Positions 50,919 to 57,797 of a stretch of DNA of 64,000 bases are shown here, piece by piece. This DNA is from a bacterium (GTDB taxonomy: Bacteria; UBA8248): positions 3,008,001-3,072,000 of the forward strand of contig OY843592.1 in assembly GCA_963692865.2 (NCBI GenBank). Direction: 5' to 3'. The notes under the pieces are model-generated. The model did not search any database. It saw only the letters and a list, made by a program, of their open reading frames with translations, and was not told the DNA's origin. The first letter of the stretch is position 1. Each line of letters begins with the position of its first letter. Both the position numbers and the translations under genes were made by a program.

Positions 50919-53900
50919 CTACCAGCGCAGGGAGCCGCGAAGCGCCACGCCGTGCGCCGGGTCGTCGTTCTCTCGCTCGCGCACGTCGCCCTCGACGCTC
51001 ATGCTCAGGCGCTCGCCCACCTTGAAGCGCCCGCCCAGGCGGTAGATCCCGCTCCCGCCCTCGGACACCGAGAGACCGGCGTAGGGCGTCAGCAGACCGC
51101 CCCAGGCGTCCAGCCCGTAGCCCACCTCCGCGCGCACGCGGGGGTCGAGACCCCGGACTTCCTCTTTCGCCAGGCGCGAGGCGTCCTTGAGACCCCACAG
51201 GCGCGCGGCCCCGCCGGCGGTCTCGCCCATTTCAGGCCGCACGGTGAGGGCGAGGCCCCGGCCCGCCTCCCCGGGCGCTATGCGGATCATGCCGCCCGCG
51301 CCCCAGTCCGCCGCGTCTTCCTCCTCGTGCGTGAGGAGACCGCGCGCCTTGAACTCCAGCGTGAGGCCCAGGGCCGGACTCGTGAAGCGAAGGCTCCCGC
51401 CCACCTCCACGCCCGCCCCCTCGTCCGCGTCGCCCCCGTCGTGGCGAAGGCCCGCCTCCACGGAGGGCCGGAACGCGCCGCCGTCCTTCATCGAAACCTC
51501 GCGCGAGGCCTCCAGCATCACCCGAAGGCGGGTCGCCTCCGCCGATACGGCATCGAGGCCGTCCTTCGCGTCCGCGTCCGTCTGCGCCAGCAGGACGTCG
51601 GACTTCACCGCCAGGTCGAACCCGCCCACCTTCGCGAGTTCGCCCCGAAGACCGAACGCGGCCATCCGCATCTCGATGTCGGTCTCGGCCTCGGCCTTCT
51701 GCCGGACGTCTTTCCTGTCCATCTCCAGCGTCATCTCGCCCCGGCCCATTCCCAGGACGCCCCAGGCCGTGACCCGCTCGTTCAGCGCGAAGCGCAGGTA
51801 GGGGTGCGCGCTCGTGAGCGTCGCCTCCACCCCGCTGCGGCCCCCGCTCTCGAAGCCCCCCTCGCCTCTGGCGTGAGAGAGCGCCACGCCCATGAGGACG
51901 GCGTTCTTCTCGTAGTCCACGCCCAGCATGGCCGTCGACACGTCGCCCTCGATGGCGGCCGCCCCGCCGCCCTCGAAACTCGTGCGCGCGCCCCGGCCCC
52001 AGAGCGACCAGCGTCCGCCCGGGACGGCCTCGCCCTCCCCGGCGGAGGCCAGGTGGAACGAACCGCCCCGCAGAAACTCGCTCATCGTCATCTCGCGGTA
52101 GGCGGGGGAGTCCTCCTCCCCGTTCGCCGGCCGGTTCGCGGCCCTTGCGCGCGCGAGGCCGCGGGAGTCGGTTCCACCATGCGTGAGCGAGGCGGACCCG
52201 AAGCCCGCGCCTTCTTTCGCGAGGTAGCGGTCCGGATCCGCATTCAGGTCCACGCTCCGGCCGCCGAGCGTCACCTTCGCCCCGCCCGGCGCGGGCGCGT
52301 TCATCCGGCTCGATATCATCTCCACCGCCTGGCTTCCCACCGCGCGGCCGAAGCGCGCCAGCCAGCCCCGCATCGCGGGGGGCGACCAGACGGGCGTCAC
52401 GGCGTCGGACGCCGGCGATGCCGCCCCCTCGCCGGCCGCGTTCACCGCGCGCACCTTGAACCGGTAGGCCACGCCGTTGACCAGGCTCGCGACGGTGTGG
52501 CGCCTCGTCGACGCCCCGCTGCCGGGAACGTCTCTCCAGGCCGTCTCGAAGGCGCCGCCCCCGGCCTGCTTGACGTATTGCCACTTCGTGATCGACGAGC
52601 CGCCGTCGCTCCCCGGGGTCCACGACAGCGCGACGCTGCCGTCGCCCGCCGTTGCGACCGGCTTCGACGGAGCGGAGGGCTTCGCGGCGGGCGTCAAGGC
52701 GTCCGTCGCCTCCGAAGCGGCCCCCGCGCCGAGCGCATTCACCGCGCGCACCCGGAAGCGGTAGGTAACGCCGTTGGTCAGGCCGGTGACGGTGTGGCTC
52801 GTCCTGTCCGGGCAGTCGGGTTCCATCGCCGTAACGCAGATGTCGGTCCAGACCGTCTCGAAATCGCCGTCCCCGGCCTGCTTGACGTATTGCCACTTCG
52901 TGATCGGCGAGCCGCCGTCGCTCCCCGGGGTCCACGACAGCGCGACGCTGCCGTCGCCCGCCGTTGCGACCGGCTTCGACGGAGCGGAGGGCGTCGAGAC
53001 GGGCGTCACGGCGTTCGTCGCCCCCGAAGCGGCGCCCGCGCCGAGCCTGTTCACCGCGCGCACCCGGAAGCGGTAGGTAACGCCGTTGGTCAGGCCGGTG
53101 ACGGTGTGGCTCGTCCTGTCCGGGCAGTCGGGTTCCATCGCCGTAACGCAGATGTCGGTCCAGACCGTCTCGAAATCGCCGTCCCCGGCCTGCTTGACGT
53201 ACTGCCACTTCGTGATCGACGAGCCGCCGTCGCTCCCCGGGGTCCACGACAGCGCGACGCTGCCGTCGCCCGCCGTTGCGACCGGCTTCGACGGAGCGGA
53301 GGGCTTCGCGGCGGGCGTCAAGGCGTCCGTCGCCTCCGAAGCGGCCCCCGCGCCGAGCGCATTCACCGCGCGCACCCGGAAGCGGTAGGTAACGCCGTTG
53401 GTCAGGCCGGTGACGGTGTGGCTCGTCCTGTCCGGGCAGTCGGGTTCCATCGCCGTAACGCAGATGTCGGTCCAGACCGTCTCGAAATCGCCGTCCCCGG
53501 CCTGCTTGACGTATTGCCACTTCGTGATCGGCGAGCCGCCGTCGCTCCCCGGGGTCCACGACAGCGCGACGCTGCCGTCGCCCGCCGTTGCGACCGGCTT
53601 CGACGGAGCGGAGGGCGTCGAGACGGGCGTCACGGCGTTCGTCGCCCCCGAAGCGGCGCCCGCGCCGAGCCCGTTCACCGCGCGCACCCGGAAGCGGTAG
53701 GTAACGCCGTTGGTCAGGCCGGTGACGGTGTGGCTCGTCCTGTCCGGGCAGTCGGGTTCCGTCGCCGTAACGCAGATGTCGGTCCAGACCGTCTCGAAAT
53801 CTTCGTCCCCGGCCTGCTTGACGTACTGCCACTTCGTGATCGACGAGCCGCCGTCGCTCCCCGGGGTCCACGACAGCGCGACGCTGCCGTCGCCCGCCGT

Positions 53901-56900
53901 TGCGACCGGCTTCGACGGAGCGGAGGGCTTCGCGGCGGGCGTCAAGGCGTCCGTCGCCCCCGAAGCGGCGCCCGCGCCGAGCCCGTTCACCGCGCGCACC
54001 CGGAAGCGGTAGGTAACGCCGTTGGTCAGGCCGGTGACGGTGTGGCTCGTCCTGTCCGGACAGTCGGGTTCCGTCGCCGTAACGCAGATGTCGGTCCAGA
54101 CCGTCTCGAAATCTTCGTCCCCGGCCTGCTTGACGTATTGCCACTTCGTGATCGGCGAGCCGCCGTCGCCACCCGAGGTCCAGAAGAGCGTCGCGCTGCC
54201 GTCGCCCGACACCGCGCCCGGCTGCCCGCCCGGCCCGGTTATGGAAGGCGCGGAGGGCGTCGAGACGGGCGTCACGGCGTTCGTCGCCTCCGAAGCGGCC
54301 CCCGCGCCGAGCGCATTCACCGCGCGCACCCGGAAGCGGTAGGCAACGCCGTTGGTCAGGCCGGTGACGGTGTGGCTCGTCCTGTCCGGACAGTCGGGTT
54401 CCATCGCCGTAACGCAGATGTCGGTCCAGACCGTCTCGAAATCGCCGTCCCCGGCCTGCTTGACGTATTGCCACTTCGTGATCGGCGAGCCGCCGTCGCC
54501 ACCCGAGGTCCAGAAGAGCGTCGCGCTGCCGTCGCCCGCCACCGCGCCCGGCTGCCCGCCCGGCCCGGTTATGGAAGGCGCGGAGGGCGCCCCGACGGGC
54601 GTCACGGCGTTCGTCGCCCCCGAAGCGGCGCCCGCGCCGAGCCTGTTCACCGCGCGCACCCGGAAGCGGTAGGCAACGCCGTTGGTCAGGCCGGTGACGG
54701 TGTGGCTCCTCCTGTCCGGGCAGTCGGGTTCCGTCGCCGTAACGCAGATGTCGGTCCAGAACGTCTCGAAATCTTCGTCCCCGGCCTGCTTGACGTACTG
54801 CCACTTCGTGATCGACGAGCCGCCGTCGCCCCCCGAGGTCCAGAAGAACGTCGCGCTGCCGTCGCCCGCCACCGCGCCCGGCTGCCCGCCCGGCCCGGTG
54901 ATGAAAGGCGCGGAGGGCGTCGAGACGGGGTTGGAGGGCCTCACGGCGTCCGACTCGGGCGAAGCGGCGCCGTCGCCCTCGCCGTTCACCGCGCGCACCT
55001 TGAACCTGTATTCCGTGCCGAAGGCGAGGCCGGTGACGGTGTGCTTGGCCCTCTCCGGGCAGTCGGGTTGCGTCGCCGTAACGCAGATGTCGGTCCAGTC
55101 CGTCTCGAAATCTTCGTCCCCGGCCTTCTTGACGTACTGCCACTTCGTGATCGGGTGGCCGCCGTCGCCCCGCGATATCCAGGTCAGCGCGACGCTGCCG
55201 GCGCCGGCGGTCGCGCCCGGCTTCTCCGGCGGGGGGGGCGGCCCGGTGAGCGCCAGTTCGATCGATTCGGGCGAAGCGGCGCCGCCGCCGATCGCGTTCA
55301 CCGCGCGCACCTTGAACTTGTAGGACGTCCCGTTGAACAGGCCCGTCACGGTGTGAGCGTTGAAGAATACTTGCCGGCAGTCGGGGAGCGTATCGTGATC
55401 CGAGGCCATCGCGCAGGCGTCGGTCCAGCTTCCGTAGCCGCCGTAGTTCCCACCGGGCGGCTTGGACGCGAAGGCGTATTGAAACTTCGTGATCCCCGTT
55501 CCGCCGTCGCTCGGCGAGAACCAGTAAAGATTTACGCTCGCGTCGCCCGCCGTCACCGGGTAAAACGAAATCCAAGACGGCGTACCGGGCGGCGCGGCGG
55601 GCGTCACGGCGTTCGATTCGGGCGAATCGACGCCGGGGCCGCCGGTATTCACCGCGCGCACCTTGAACTTGTAGGTATTGCCGTTAATCAGGCCGGTGAC
55701 GGTGTGGCTGGTCCTGTTCGGGCAGGTGGCGTCCTGTGAGGTCTCGCAGATGTCGCTCCAGCTGCCGTAGCCGTAACTCTGCTTGTAGGCGTACTGCCAC
55801 TTCGTGATCGCCGATCCGCCGGCTCCCCCCGAGGTCCACGACAGCGTGACGCTTCGGTCGCCGGGGGTCACCCCCGGCTTCGAGGGCGCGGGGGGCGTCT
55901 CGATCTCGATGAAGTCCGTCTTCGAGAAATCCCGGCCCTCGACGCTCTGGGAGGATTTCAGGGAGACGTTCCACCTGCCGTTCCGAGCCGTGTTACCGGT
56001 GTTGCCATCCTCGTCGTGCAGCGTCGTCCCGTTCAGGACGATGGTCGTCACGCCGCCGTCGTTCATGATGTAGTCGTCCCCGAAGACCTGCGCCATCGTG
56101 CGCCCGTCGAGGGTGAGGCTCACGTGGAGCGCGGGGGCGGTCTCCGTGGCGAGCTTCCTCGCCGCGCGAATCGCCGCGCCCGACGCCGCCCGCAGACTTG
56201 CGTCCTTCCCGATGACCACCTTGCCCCCGCCGGAGAGATACACCCCCGCCGCGTCGCCCGAGCCGCCCGTCACCGAACCGTTCACCGTCACCGTCTGTTG
56301 TCGGTAGCCGTCCGTCCCCAGCTTCGCCGCGAGCTCCAGGGCTTGCGTCGTACTGTTGAACCCGCCTATCCGGACGCCGCTCGCCTTCGCTCCCGAAGCG
56401 GTGAGCGAAGCCCCCGCGCCGATGGAGATCGCTATCGTCCCCTCGCCCGTCCGATGCCCGGCGTAGACGCCGTGGGCGTCCGCGCCCGTCGTCGTGACAC
56501 TGGTGGAGGCGCCCCGAACGTCCAGGTCGATGTCGCCGCCGGCGCCGGTATGGACGCCGTATGCGCCGTGGGAATCCGCGCCGCCCGTGGTGATGGAGGC
56601 GCCGCCCGCCACGTCGATCTCCAAATTGCCCTTGCTGTTCGAGCTTTCGTTGTAATGCCAGGCGAATATCCCGTGGGCGTCGTCGCCCTCCGTCTCGATG
56701 GAGGCGCCGTCAAGGCCCAGATCGACGTTGGCCGACTTCGTCGCCGATGCTATTCCATAATGCAGGCCGTATATCCCGTGGGAGCCGTCTTTCTTCGTGT
56801 TGATCGACGCGCTGCCCGCCACGTCGATCTCGATGTCGCCGTAGATGGGGCCGGTGTTCGAAAGTATGGCATGCCAGGCGGAAATCCCGTGGGACCTCTC

Positions 56901-57593
56901 GCCCTCCGTGGTGATGGAAGCGCTGCCCGCCACGTCGATGTCGGTGTCGCCCTCGATCGTGGCGGTTTGGGTGCTGTCATACTGAAAGGCGTATATCCCG
57001 TCGGCTTCGTCGCCCTTCGTGGTAATCGACGCGCTGCCCGCCACGTCGATGTCGATTTTGCCATCCGCTTTGAAGCCCGGACCCGAGCCTATGTAGTGGT
57101 AGCCGTATATCCCGTGGGAGTCGTCGGAATTCGTGGTGATCGAAGCGCTGCCCTCCACGAGGATTTTGCCGTCCCGTTTGGTCAGGCCGTAGACGCCGTA
57201 TCCTTCATTCGTGGTGGAGGTCAACGTGATCGAGGCGGCTCCATCCACGGTGATGTCGTAGTCGCCGTTGCCCTGGTGCCGGGCCCAGACGCCGTGGATA
57301 TTGCCGGCGTTCGGCGCCGCCGTGGAGATGACGCCGCCCGTCACGTCGATGTCGATGTCGCCCGTATTCTGGTGGTTGCCGTAGACGGCGTGGTTGTCCG
57401 ACGTGGTGATGTCGAAGTTCGTCAGGTCGATGGCCAGGTCGCCGCTCGTCGTCTTCACGCACTTTACCCTTTTCCCGGCCGTGGGGTTGCCCGAAGCGGG
57501 GCATTCCTCCTGCTGCTGGGCCGTAGCCGGCCCGGCGCAGAGGATCAGGGCGGCGGCCAGGGCGACGGCGCCCGCGAGAACCCGCGCACTCAC
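50919..57593 (-). CDS. Large autotransporter-like surface adhesin: signal peptide, beta-helix-like repeats, 11 Fn3 domains, C-terminal beta-barrel. True start probably ATG 57772, currently out of frame
   Basis: Hydrophobic ALAAALILCAGPATA; repeated DIDVAGSASITT.G..A.GIY; Fn3 motifs SVALSW...DGGSPITKWQY...TVTGLTNG..YRFRVRAVN; barrel with WSLWGRG and terminal LRGSLRW. Confidence 0.85.
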   Translation of the reverse strand: MSARVLAGAVALAAALILCAGPATAQQQEECPASGNPTAGKRVKCVKTTSGDLAIDLTNFDITTSDNHAVYGNHQNTGDIDIDVTGGVISTAAPNAGNIHGVWARHQGNGDYDITVDGAASITLTSTTNEGYGVYGLTKRDGKILVEGSASITTNSDDSHGIYGYHYIGSGPGFKADGKIDIDVAGSASITTKGDEADGIYAFQYDSTQTATIEGDTDIDVAGSASITTEGERSHGISAWHAILSNTGPIYGDIEIDVAGSASINTKKDGSHGIYGLHYGIASATKSANVDLGLDGASIETEGDDAHGIFAWHYNESSNSKGNLEIDVAGGASITTGGADSHGAYGVHTGAGGDIDLDVRGASTSVTTTGADAHGVYAGHRTGEGTIAISIGAGASLTASGAKASGVRIGGFNSTTQALELAAKLGTDGYRQQTVTVNGSVTGGSGDAAGVYLSGGGKVVIGKDASLRAASGAAIRAARKLATETAPALHVSLTLDGRTMAQVFGDDYIMNDGGVTTIVLNGTTLHDEDGNTGNTARNGRWNVSLKSSQSVEGRDFSKTDFIEIETPPAPSKPGVTPGDRSVTLSWTSGGAGGSAITKWQYAYKQSYGYGSWSDICETSQDATCPNRTSHTVTGLINGNTYKFKVRAVNTGGPGVDSPESNAVTPAAPPGTPSWISFYPVTAGDASVNLYWFSPSDGGTGITKFQYAFASKPPGGNYGGYGSWTDACAMASDHDTLPDCRQVFFNAHTVTGLFNGTSYKFKVRAVNAIGGGAASPESIELALTGPPPPPEKPGATAGAGSVALTWISRGDGGHPITKWQYVKKAGDEDFETDWTDICVTATQPDCPERAKHTVTGLAFGTEYRFKVRAVNGEGDGAASPESDAVRPSNPVSTPSAPFITGPGGQPGAVAGDGSATFFWTSGGDGGSSITKWQYVKQAGDEDFETFWTDICVTATEPDCPDRRSHTVTGLTNGVAYRFRVRAVNRLGAGAASGATNAVTPVGAPSAPSITGPGGQPGAVAGDGSATLFWTSGGDGGSPITKWQYVKQAGDGDFETVWTDICVTAMEPDCPDRTSHTVTGLTNGVAYRFRVRAVNALGAGAASEATNAVTPVSTPSAPSITGPGGQPGAVSGDGSATLFWTSGGDGGSPITKWQYVKQAGDEDFETVWTDICVTATEPDCPDRTSHTVTGLTNGVTYRFRVRAVNGLGAGAASGATDALTPAAKPSAPSKPVATAGDGSVALSWTPGSDGGSSITKWQYVKQAGDEDFETVWTDICVTATEPDCPDRTSHTVTGLTNGVTYRFRVRAVNGLGAGAASGATNAVTPVSTPSAPSKPVATAGDGSVALSWTPGSDGGSPITKWQYVKQAGDGDFETVWTDICVTAMEPDCPDRTSHTVTGLTNGVTYRFRVRAVNALGAGAASEATDALTPAAKPSAPSKPVATAGDGSVALSWTPGSDGGSSITKWQYVKQAGDGDFETVWTDICVTAMEPDCPDRTSHTVTGLTNGVTYRFRVRAVNRLGAGAASGATNAVTPVSTPSAPSKPVATAGDGSVALSWTPGSDGGSPITKWQYVKQAGDGDFETVWTDICVTAMEPDCPDRTSHTVTGLTNGVTYRFRVRAVNALGAGAASEATDALTPAAKPSAPSKPVATAGDGSVALSWTPGSDGGSSITKWQYVKQAGGGAFETAWRDVPGSGASTRRHTVASLVNGVAYRFKVRAVNAAGEGAASPASDAVTPVWSPPAMRGWLARFGRAVGSQAVEMISSRMNAPAPGGAKVTLGGRSVDLNADPDRYLAKEGAGFGSASLTHGGTDSRGLARARAANRPANGEEDSPAYREMTMSEFLRGGSFHLASAGEGEAVPGGRWSLWGRGARTSFEGGGAAAIEGDVSTAMLGVDYEKNAVLMGVALSHARGEGGFESGGRSGVEATLTSAHPYLRFALNERVTAWGVLGMGRGEMTLEMDRKDVRQKAEAETDIEMRMAAFGLRGELAKVGGFDLAVKSDVLLAQTDADAKDGLDAVSAEATRLRVMLEASREVSMKDGGAFRPSVEAGLRHDGGDADEGAGVEVGGSLRFTSPALGLTLEFKARGLLTHEEEDAADWGAGGMIRIAPGEAGRGLALTVRPEMGETAGGAARLWGLKDASRLAKEEVRGLDPRVRAEVGYGLDAWGGLLTPYAGLSVSEGGSGIYRLGGRFKVGERLSMSVEGDVRERENDDPAHGVALRGSLRW
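52388..55900 (-). repeat. Tandem Fn3-coding repeats (312-bp and 330-bp periods)
   Basis: Shadow ORFs recur at 52774/53086/53398/53710/54022 (step 312) and 54352/54682 (step 330); DNA is near-identical between units. Confidence 0.95.
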
Positions 57594-57772
57594 GCCGCGC
57601 CTCTTCTTTGGAGACTGGAGACTGGAGACTGGAGACTGGAGACTGGAGACTGGAGACTGGAGACTGGAGACTGGAGACTGGAGACTGGAGACTGGAGACT
57701 GGAGACTGGAGACTGGAATTTCATGATATCACGTTTCGGAGAGCGGATAAACGCCGGCTTGGAAGCATTCAT
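57590..57772 (-). CDS. Leader ORF / frameshifted 5' end of the adhesin, containing (QSPVSSL)5
   Basis: AAGGAGG (57785-57779) lies 6 nt before ATG 57772; its TGA overlaps the adhesin GTG (GTGA, 57593-57590). Confidence 0.7.
   Translation of the reverse strand: MNASKPAFIRSPKRDIMKFQSPVSSLQSPVSSLQSPVSSLQSPVSSLQSPVSSLQRRGAA
57609..57717. repeat. Perfect heptanucleotide SSR (TGGAGAC)x15 + TGGA
   Basis: Counted directly: 57609-57713 = 105 nt. Confidence 0.98.
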
Positions 57773-57797
57773 GACCAACCTCCTTGAGCGTCGTTCC

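Follow-up and report, generated by a model that had tools for sequence, protein, structure and literature searches.

We describe a perfect tract of a seven-nucleotide unit, (CCAGTCT)n, that lies ahead of the gene for a 2224-residue surface protein in a 64,000-nt stretch of bacterial DNA (the window, whose positions serve as coordinates). The host genome (G000; 4,150,441 bases) belongs to an uncultured group known only through metagenome-assembled genomes (MAGs). The tract fills most of a short open reading frame (ORF), the leader, which has its own Shine-Dalgarno (SD) sequence and start codon and which, at the assembled number of 15 units, ends in a stop codon overlapping the start codon of the surface-protein gene. 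It is very probable that this tract is a real hypermutable control element of some kind. More specifically, we favour a three-phase slipped-strand translational switch, in which the number of units would decide between fusion of the leader to the main protein, a stop on the main start codon, and an overrun past it, with the assembled 15-unit state expression-competent from GTG 57593; as a complete proposal, we place this a little short of an even chance. The expression competence of the 15-unit state, taken by itself, is probable.

The whole feature is on the minus strand, and its elements are as follows.

57779..57785, minus strand: leader SD sequence AAGGAGG, separated from the leader start by the 6-nt spacer TTGGTC (direct reading)
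57770-57772, minus strand: leader start codon ATG (direct reading)
57590..57772, minus strand: leader ORF in the 15-unit state, 60 codons, translated as MNASKPAFIRSPKRDIMKF(QSPVSSL)5QRRGAA*
57609..57717, minus strand: heptamer tract (CCAGTCT)n, 15.6 units (Tandem Repeats Finder and three-frame translation)
57600..57605, minus strand: purine-rich, SD-like AAGAGG, 6 nt 5′ of GTG 57593 and aligned to the SD of repeat-free homologues
57590..57593, minus strand: GTGA, in which the GTG (57593-57591) and the leader stop TGA (57592-57590) overlap (reading and translation)
57205..57207, minus strand: third-frame stop, reached at n = 2 mod 3, about 130 codons beyond the GTG (translation)

A preliminary description of this DNA had reported a perfect SD (AAGGAGG) six nucleotides ahead of ATG 57772, followed by 15 perfect 7-bp units. 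Direct reading agrees with the former, and Tandem Repeats Finder bears out the latter (period 7, 15.6 copies, 100% matches, score 218). No sense frame contains a stop inside the tract. As would be expected of a simple-sequence-repeat (SSR) contingency locus, a perfect non-triplet tract lies within an open, SD-led 5′ frame. The leader ATG and the GTG are 179 nt apart, so that gain or loss of a single unit alters the frame relation of the leader start to the main ORF; the two are in frame with each other at n = 1 mod 3 (13 or 16 units), and the frame arithmetic given earlier proved correct. Read in the frame of 57770, the sequence gives ...QSPKKRRGVSARVLAGAVALAAALILCAGPATAQQQ and then continues into the 2224-residue ORF (50919..57593), whose recorded gene call (P0002) begins at GTG 57593. 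The frame of the main ORF carries a stop 5 codons ahead of the tract. The third frame passes the GTG without a stop and belongs to an ORF ending at 57205, where the preliminary description had placed its end. Translation likewise agrees that at n = 15 the leader TGA overlaps the GTG (GTGA, 57593-57590); the AGAGG noted upstream of it is part of AAGAGG (57605-57600), so that both the SD-like motif and the stop-start overlap (NUGA) lie inside the leader ORF.

Around the leader start itself, the sequence reads ATGAATG, and the second ATG (57768) is in another frame. It opens a 15-codon ORF that stops at a TGA (57723-57721) overlapping an in-frame ATG of the leader (57724, Met17), which forms another ATGA. 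Because this frame closes at 57721, before the tract, only one frame enters the repeat. We also considered the leader UGA as a selenocysteine codon and rejected this, since read-through would add merely 14 nonsense codons before a further TGA.

In the mechanism that we propose, the slippage-prone (CCAGTCT)n would be carried in a short leader with a strong start (AAGGAGG, 6 nt, ATG 57772) placed ahead of a canonical start, and unit gain or loss would shift leader ribosomes among three fates according to n mod 3. At n = 1 mod 3 (13, 16), read-through would yield a protein with a 55- or 62-residue N-terminal extension, the junction peptide of which would be QSPKKRRGVSAR. At n = 0 mod 3 (15), ribosomes would stop at the UGA over the GUG, and the GUG would give rise to the normal pre-protein, through re-initiation, independent initiation or both. 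At n = 2 mod 3 (14, 17), they would pass the start in the wrong frame and terminate at 57205, about 130 codons on, the GUG would be occluded, and the lowest output would be expected. This three-state idea has some support; that the tract slips within natural populations, and how the three states compare in output, we infer.

Comparison with relatives points to GTG 57593 as the place where the gene truly starts. Homologues that are repeat-free or carry a poly-C run (L011, L043, L051, L055, L059, L060, L062; genomes, loci and proteins are labelled G, L and P) have as their start an ATG or GTG that aligns with GTG 57593 and lies at the same distance from its SD. In L011, a repeat-free locus of the same genus, the sequence is AAGAGGCAAGGC ATG AGC GCG CGG, that is, AAGAGG CAAGGC before the ATG, and at the window locus the tract is followed by AAGAGG CGCGGC GTG AGT GCG CGG. 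More distant homologues, from MAGs of Alpha- and Gammaproteobacteria, have MSAR, MSVR or MNTR at the aligned start. Between the window locus and each of two loci of G032 (another family), 25 of 28 positions are identical across the junction (−16 to +12), whereas the signal-peptide part gives 47/63 and 46/63 and the sequence beyond it 154/255; by this measure the SD and internal start are the best-conserved stretch of the 5′ region. Together, the aligned starts of repeat-free homologues and the well-conserved junction argue that the GTG is the family's canonical start and that leader and tract are an addition ahead of a complete gene.

It follows that the product made from the GTG would be the normal pre-protein, with a signal peptide that is not shortened.

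57519..57593, minus strand: signal peptide MSARVLAGAVALAAALILCAGPATA, then QQQ (translation from the GTG; n-region, h-region of about 17 residues, A-x-A)

Judged by eye, this looks like an ordinary Sec signal peptide, with MSAR, a 17-residue hydrophobic core, and ATA followed by QQQ. Here we depart from the preliminary description, which had placed the tract inside the signal-peptide region, taken KKRR for the basic n-region, and predicted a shortened signal peptide from the GTG. Instead, the tract is found in an added leader ORF 5′ of the family-typical start, KKRRG is the translation of the SD and its spacer, after which repeat-free homologues start, and the GTG yields the family-normal pre-protein. 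The 15-unit state may hence be fully ON rather than low.

Within its own genome, the tract belongs to a very small set. Our census of the complete 4.15-Mb sequence of G000 found only three 7-nt tracts of more than 3 units, with 20, 20 and 15 units, and the next-longest has 3 units; three long heptamer tracts in 4.15 Mb exclude chance. A search with the shared C-terminal domain recovered seven genes of the autotransporter family in G000; the 5′ end bears a heptamer tract in three of these and lacks one in the remaining four. Among the species genomes scanned, the CCAGTCT unit reaches at least 4 copies in the window's genome only. Contigs from four public runs (three samples of one study) enter the tract from a flank that is identical and without differences, so that the tract is not an assembly artefact of one data set. 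At k=31, in the region 57000-57650, the flank contigs end 30 nt inside the tract and are accompanied by a 35-nt cyclic contig, the tract itself being collapsed. Exact-pattern scans of metagenome contigs with the leader-tract junction and with the SD-GTG junction returned 0 stretches.

The ratio of cyclic-contig to flank depth (57609-57645) was 10.1, 20.4, 11.5 and 10.3 in runs X1, X2, X3 and X4, where a 109-nt tract predicts 11.3. The doubled depth in X2, which comes from another sample, may reflect about 25 units or a second source of the unit, and, depth not being copy number, is a hint only.

The arrangement recurs elsewhere, and the switch anatomy first described from the window alone, a perfect tract in an SD-led leader, is upheld. 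A locus search from a 5-sequence alignment gave 16 loci. In the 51 species genomes of the phylum-level group, we inspected tract loci individually and found the leader-tract-start layout in 20 loci from 8 of the 51 genomes, with 7- or 8-nt units and with varied unit numbers and frame states. Each of the three phases is represented: of the 15 inspected loci that retain an internal start, 6 are fused, 6 stop on an NTGA and 3 are in another frame. All 8 tract-bearing genomes are assemblies of 8 contigs or fewer, so that fragmented MAGs probably conceal further tract loci. One homologue is labelled Nitrospinae in its record. The 7-nt units encountered were CCAGTCT, CCAGACT, CTTCAGA, CCGAACT, GCCTCAA and CGTCATC, and the 8-nt units CCGACTCA and CCGCCTCA; several differ by one base, which suggests common descent and homogenisation within each tract.

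At 8 units or more, the octamer was found in G007 and G001 only (167 and 80 overlapping matches, respectively). There, (CCGACTCA)n tracts precede paralogous genes at at least 10 loci in G007 and at least 7 loci in G001, with n from about 10 to 36 (for example L010, L021, L031-L034, L068, L080, L042). Near-identical leaders are followed by unequal tracts, of 13 units in L010 versus 27 in L068, and two orthologous-looking loci of two species, L014 and L023, have 23 versus 17 units. Such inequality after near-identical leaders reads as a comparative signature of active slippage, at sister loci rather than at the window locus.

Given this distribution, it is improbable that the tract has no regulatory effect at all, being a neutral, self-expanding repeat ahead of a gene always translated from GTG 57593. 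Such a view would fit a GTG start that is complete and canonical, as well as the finding, detailed below, of no structure or SD-masking signal. It would also fit the near-uniform frame states (6/6/3) of the loci with an internal start. However, it leaves unexplained why long tracts mark three of the seven genes of a single surface-protein family but no other site of the 4.15-Mb genome, why 16 of the 18 tabulated leaders have an SD-like motif and a start open into the tract despite their differing sequences, and why one position is occupied, depending on the lineage, by a 7-nt, an 8-nt or a poly-C tract.

A second alternative draws on the remaining two long heptamer tracts of G000, both outside the window.

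G000:C1:235801-235940 (L029:802-941), outside the window: heptamer tract (CCGAACT)20
G000:C1:3224137-3224276 (L030:5138-5277), outside the window: heptamer tract (CCGAACT)20

L029 and L030 are inverted near-duplicates in their 5′ regions, each about 230 nt beyond a gene whose product ends ...VRGVGYRMAAPE. In both, the order is an SD (GGGAGG), an ATG, a 16-codon leader (MTRWTAPAVSARLGKS), the tract, a segment GATTAGATAG that stops both off-frames, and a signal peptide read in a different frame; with one more unit, each leader would be in frame with the 1470-residue Fn3/Calx-beta protein that follows. Between tract and hydrophobic core, neither contains an ATG, GTG or TTG, so that at these loci the leader ATG must serve as the start and a long repetitive extension must be tolerated. 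In G013, the gene caller took the fused form of protein P0083 as the gene, with about 85 residues from the internal Met to the hydrophobic core. Long N-terminal extensions therefore seem to be tolerated in the family, L029 and L030 having no other possible start. By analogy, the window locus could be a binary phase-variable gene in which only the fusion from ATG 57772 (n = 13, 16) is productive, the GTG is a relic and the gene is OFF at n = 15, and the leader signals (AAGGAGG with ATG) are indeed stronger than the internal ones (AAGAGG with GTG). Nevertheless, we regard this as unlikely, because the internal SD and start are the best-conserved 5′ stretch and align with the true start of repeat-free homologues, and because, with SD and start both intact, some expression would be expected even when the switch is OFF.

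Several observations weigh against the three-phase switch. At the window locus, the contigs of all four runs collapse the tract (57609-57717), with no length variation to be read from them. Residues 1-520, used as a protein query, brought up no orthologue (44% identity for the best match other than the protein itself), and neither did the species genomes (closest match at most 49% identity). Lacking an internal start, L029 and L030 fit a plain ON/OFF switch, and the 6/6/3 split of states is equally expected under neutrality. Folds of −30 to +50 at 17 loci gave no start-masking hairpin (z −2.6 to +2.4, mostly about 0). The stop-start overlap is present in 13 of the 14 tract loci that retain the internal start, and five of the 10 repeat-free paralogues whose start is clear have it too; since the loci are moreover mutual kin, the overlap is possibly inherited rather than selected, and NTGA as a selected signature (13/14 versus 5/10) was set aside as too weak to claim. 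Finally, at four G007 loci (L021, L032, L034, L068) the tract is followed by ACATGA..(6 codons)..[A/G]TGA, and the third frame, which in our proposal should be the lowest, stops on the ATGA. This ATGA opens a 6-codon mini-ORF ending on the GTGA, so that every frame ends on or fuses to a start leading into the gene, with no clear OFF state there and graded levels instead.

These four mini-ORFs are the basis of a broader reading that we hold to be possible, though doubtful. An SD-ATG leader, a hypermutable tract, an SD and an NUGA start might together form a portable cassette, working as a three-level rheostat rather than as an ON/OFF switch. The second ATGA mini-ORF would relay the third frame in one subfamily, and the cassette would have spread, as 7-nt, 8-nt and poly-C tracts, across autotransporter-type proteins of this group and of Alpha- and Gammaproteobacteria MAGs.

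As to RNA structure, neither the minimum-free-energy nor the centroid fold of the 281-nt leader contained a long hairpin (z = +1.99; 196 of 200 shuffled sequences were as stable or more so). Self-pairing of the tract is weak, and no G-rich arm complementary to several tract units was seen at the locus. In the centroid fold of 57708-57785, GGAGGUUGG of the leader SD and spacer pairs with the first CCAGUCUCC of the tract, and the UCAUGA of the start codon with the UCAUGA of Met17; the pairing of SD and first repeat is missing at other loci. The repeat as an anti-SD that masks the leader SD was tried and rejected, as duplex energies were no better than those of shuffled units at 15 of 15 loci (fraction as good 0.12-0.99, here 0.20).

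These folds are relevant to the nearest published case. According to the available excerpts, hmw1A and hmw2A of Haemophilus influenzae carry (ATCTTTC)n in 13-38 copies, with 8- and 9-nt variants in other strains (PMC2651432), and the hmw1A tract, in the 5′-untranslated region (5′-UTR), lowers expression in inverse proportion to its length via a repeat hairpin cut by RNase III (PMC12721329). As far as those excerpts go, our locus is similar in having tens of 7-nt units in the leader of a very large adhesin gene, with paralogous loci that differ in number. It would then be conceivable that the transcribed tract sets folding, processing or stability of the mRNA, output scaling with unit number and not with frame. 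In favour of this are the heptamer tract in the 5′-UTR of a large adhesin gene, as excerpted from PMC12721329, and the similarity of the hmw unit numbers (13-38 in the excerpt of PMC2651432) to the 10-36 found here. We nonetheless judge it very improbable. The predicted leader lacks the long hairpin, its tract pairs weakly with itself and has no G-rich partner arm, and a model of this kind would have no need of an SD, an ATG or a frame left open across the repeat. Neither the hairpin of about 10 repeats with a G-rich arm nor the untranslated tract of the hmw1A type was found; whereas the excerpts describe an untranslated tract with a long hairpin, the tract here is in an SD- and ATG-led ORF, where frame matters by construction.

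The protein encoded behind the tract is, by homology, a giant surface protein of autotransporter type.

50919..57593, minus strand: surface protein of 2224 residues, with an N-terminal repeat-rich passenger, at least 11 Fn3 domains and a C-terminal autotransporter-type domain
52535..55224, minus strand: 312-nt tandem array, 8.4 copies, 91% matches, encoding Fn3 repeats
50922..52301, minus strand: C-terminal 460 residues, 76% identical (352/461) to the own-genome paralogue P0003

Pfam fn3 matches it in 11 stretches (1.8e-113), and the 312-nt array is a second, in-frame source of length variation, by recombination. The C-terminal 460 residues had no direct match in Pfam (E<=1), NCBIfam or PDB sequence searches. 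The aligned part of P0003 scores 38.2 bits against the Autotransporter beta-domain PF03797 (cut-off 26 bits), as does P0014 with 42.8 bits, the latter being named autotransporter domain-containing protein; the same name is attached at source to a 72%-identical protein. By homology, the 2224-residue protein is thus classed as an autotransporter-type surface protein, a class assigned through its paralogues because its own C-terminus matches no family.

SSR-driven phase variation of adhesins and autotransporters is textbook knowledge; to our knowledge, almost all such contingency loci have been described in pathogens and commensals that are adapted to a host and can be cultured. In lic1A of H. 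influenzae, (CAAT)n combined with several upstream ATGs gives strong, weak or no expression, and the switch proposed here would similarly set one of three levels of expression, according to which start codon and frame are used. However, the alternative starts of lic1A are upstream of its tract and in different frames, whereas at our locus one frame, not two or more, enters the tract and the alternative start is downstream. The opa genes of Neisseria have (CTCTT)n in the region coding for the signal peptide, and, as in our case, they form a surface-protein multigene family in which each copy has its own 5′ tract and an independent frame state; their repeat encodes part of the hydrophobic core, whereas ours encodes a hydrophilic stretch before a complete signal peptide. 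Termination-reinitiation operates at AUGA or GUGA overlaps between adjacent bacterial genes. The UGA of the 15-unit leader overlaps the GUG in the same manner, and an SD-like motif is located within the leader ORF, 6 nt ahead of the GUG, but operon overlaps are fixed, and here a hypermutable tract would decide whether the overlap is used.

Closest in protein type are Lav, with (GCAA)n, NalP and MspA, with homopolymers, and AutB, which the available excerpts present as autotransporters with the tract inside the ORF (PMC9022572, PMC3723659, PMC5118866). With these, our locus shares an autotransporter-type protein whose frame from the first start is set by 5′ tract units. In those excerpts they have a single start, the tract in the gene proper and ON/OFF expression, whereas here the tract is followed by a further, canonical SD and start, and one of the off-frames terminates exactly at that start. 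What distinguishes the present case from those known is the added leader ORF before an intact start, the stop-on-start phase, the presence of at least 10 loci per genome, and an uncultured host known from MAGs only. Our literature search, which covered few subscription journals, retrieved nothing on SSR phase variation in such uncultured lineages, nor any account of a leader ORF that carries a tract and terminates at the main start codon.

Some related loci are worth recording in their own right. In MAGs of Alpha- and Gammaproteobacteria, homologues of the N-terminal domain (L051, L055, L059, L060, L062) have poly-C runs of 18-24 nt located 17-25 nt 5′ of the ATG or GTG; one genome has two paralogues with runs of 23 and 22 C, and the leader frame of L055, which begins with an SD and ATG, passes through the poly-C. 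L078 (G032:C1:2763822-2766840), the state of which was worked out manually, retains the leader and the SD-GTGA junction with only 2.4 repeat units. Stops follow the repeats in all three frames (TAG, TAA, and TGA on the GTG), the ORF appears split into 259 and 469 residues, and the locus may be a decayed copy. Other SSRs of G000 (G13, C13, G12, an 8-mer x5 and others) were considered as gene-start tracts and rejected, as they sit in intergenic repeat-like elements. At G000:C1:1828014, C1:2152708, C5:38853, C1:3657283 and C1:2042446, G/C homopolymers of 11-13 nt and short 8-9-nt repeats are found in intergenic elements with motifs in common, for instance CCCCTTGTCGGGG...CTTTTTCAACAA; these look like a dispersed repeat family rather than gene-start tracts.

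These findings have a practical side, as the start chosen by a gene caller varies with unit number in such genes, and short-read MAGs will miss the tracts entirely. If the three phases are three output levels, the leader, tract and start would show how, by simple means, translation can be controlled in nature in a graded, heritable and reversible way. More broadly, a family of giant Fn3- and Calx-beta-bearing proteins with long 7- or 8-nt tracts, at at least 10 loci in some genomes, implies that organisms not yet grown vary their cell surface in a stochastic, combinatorial manner.

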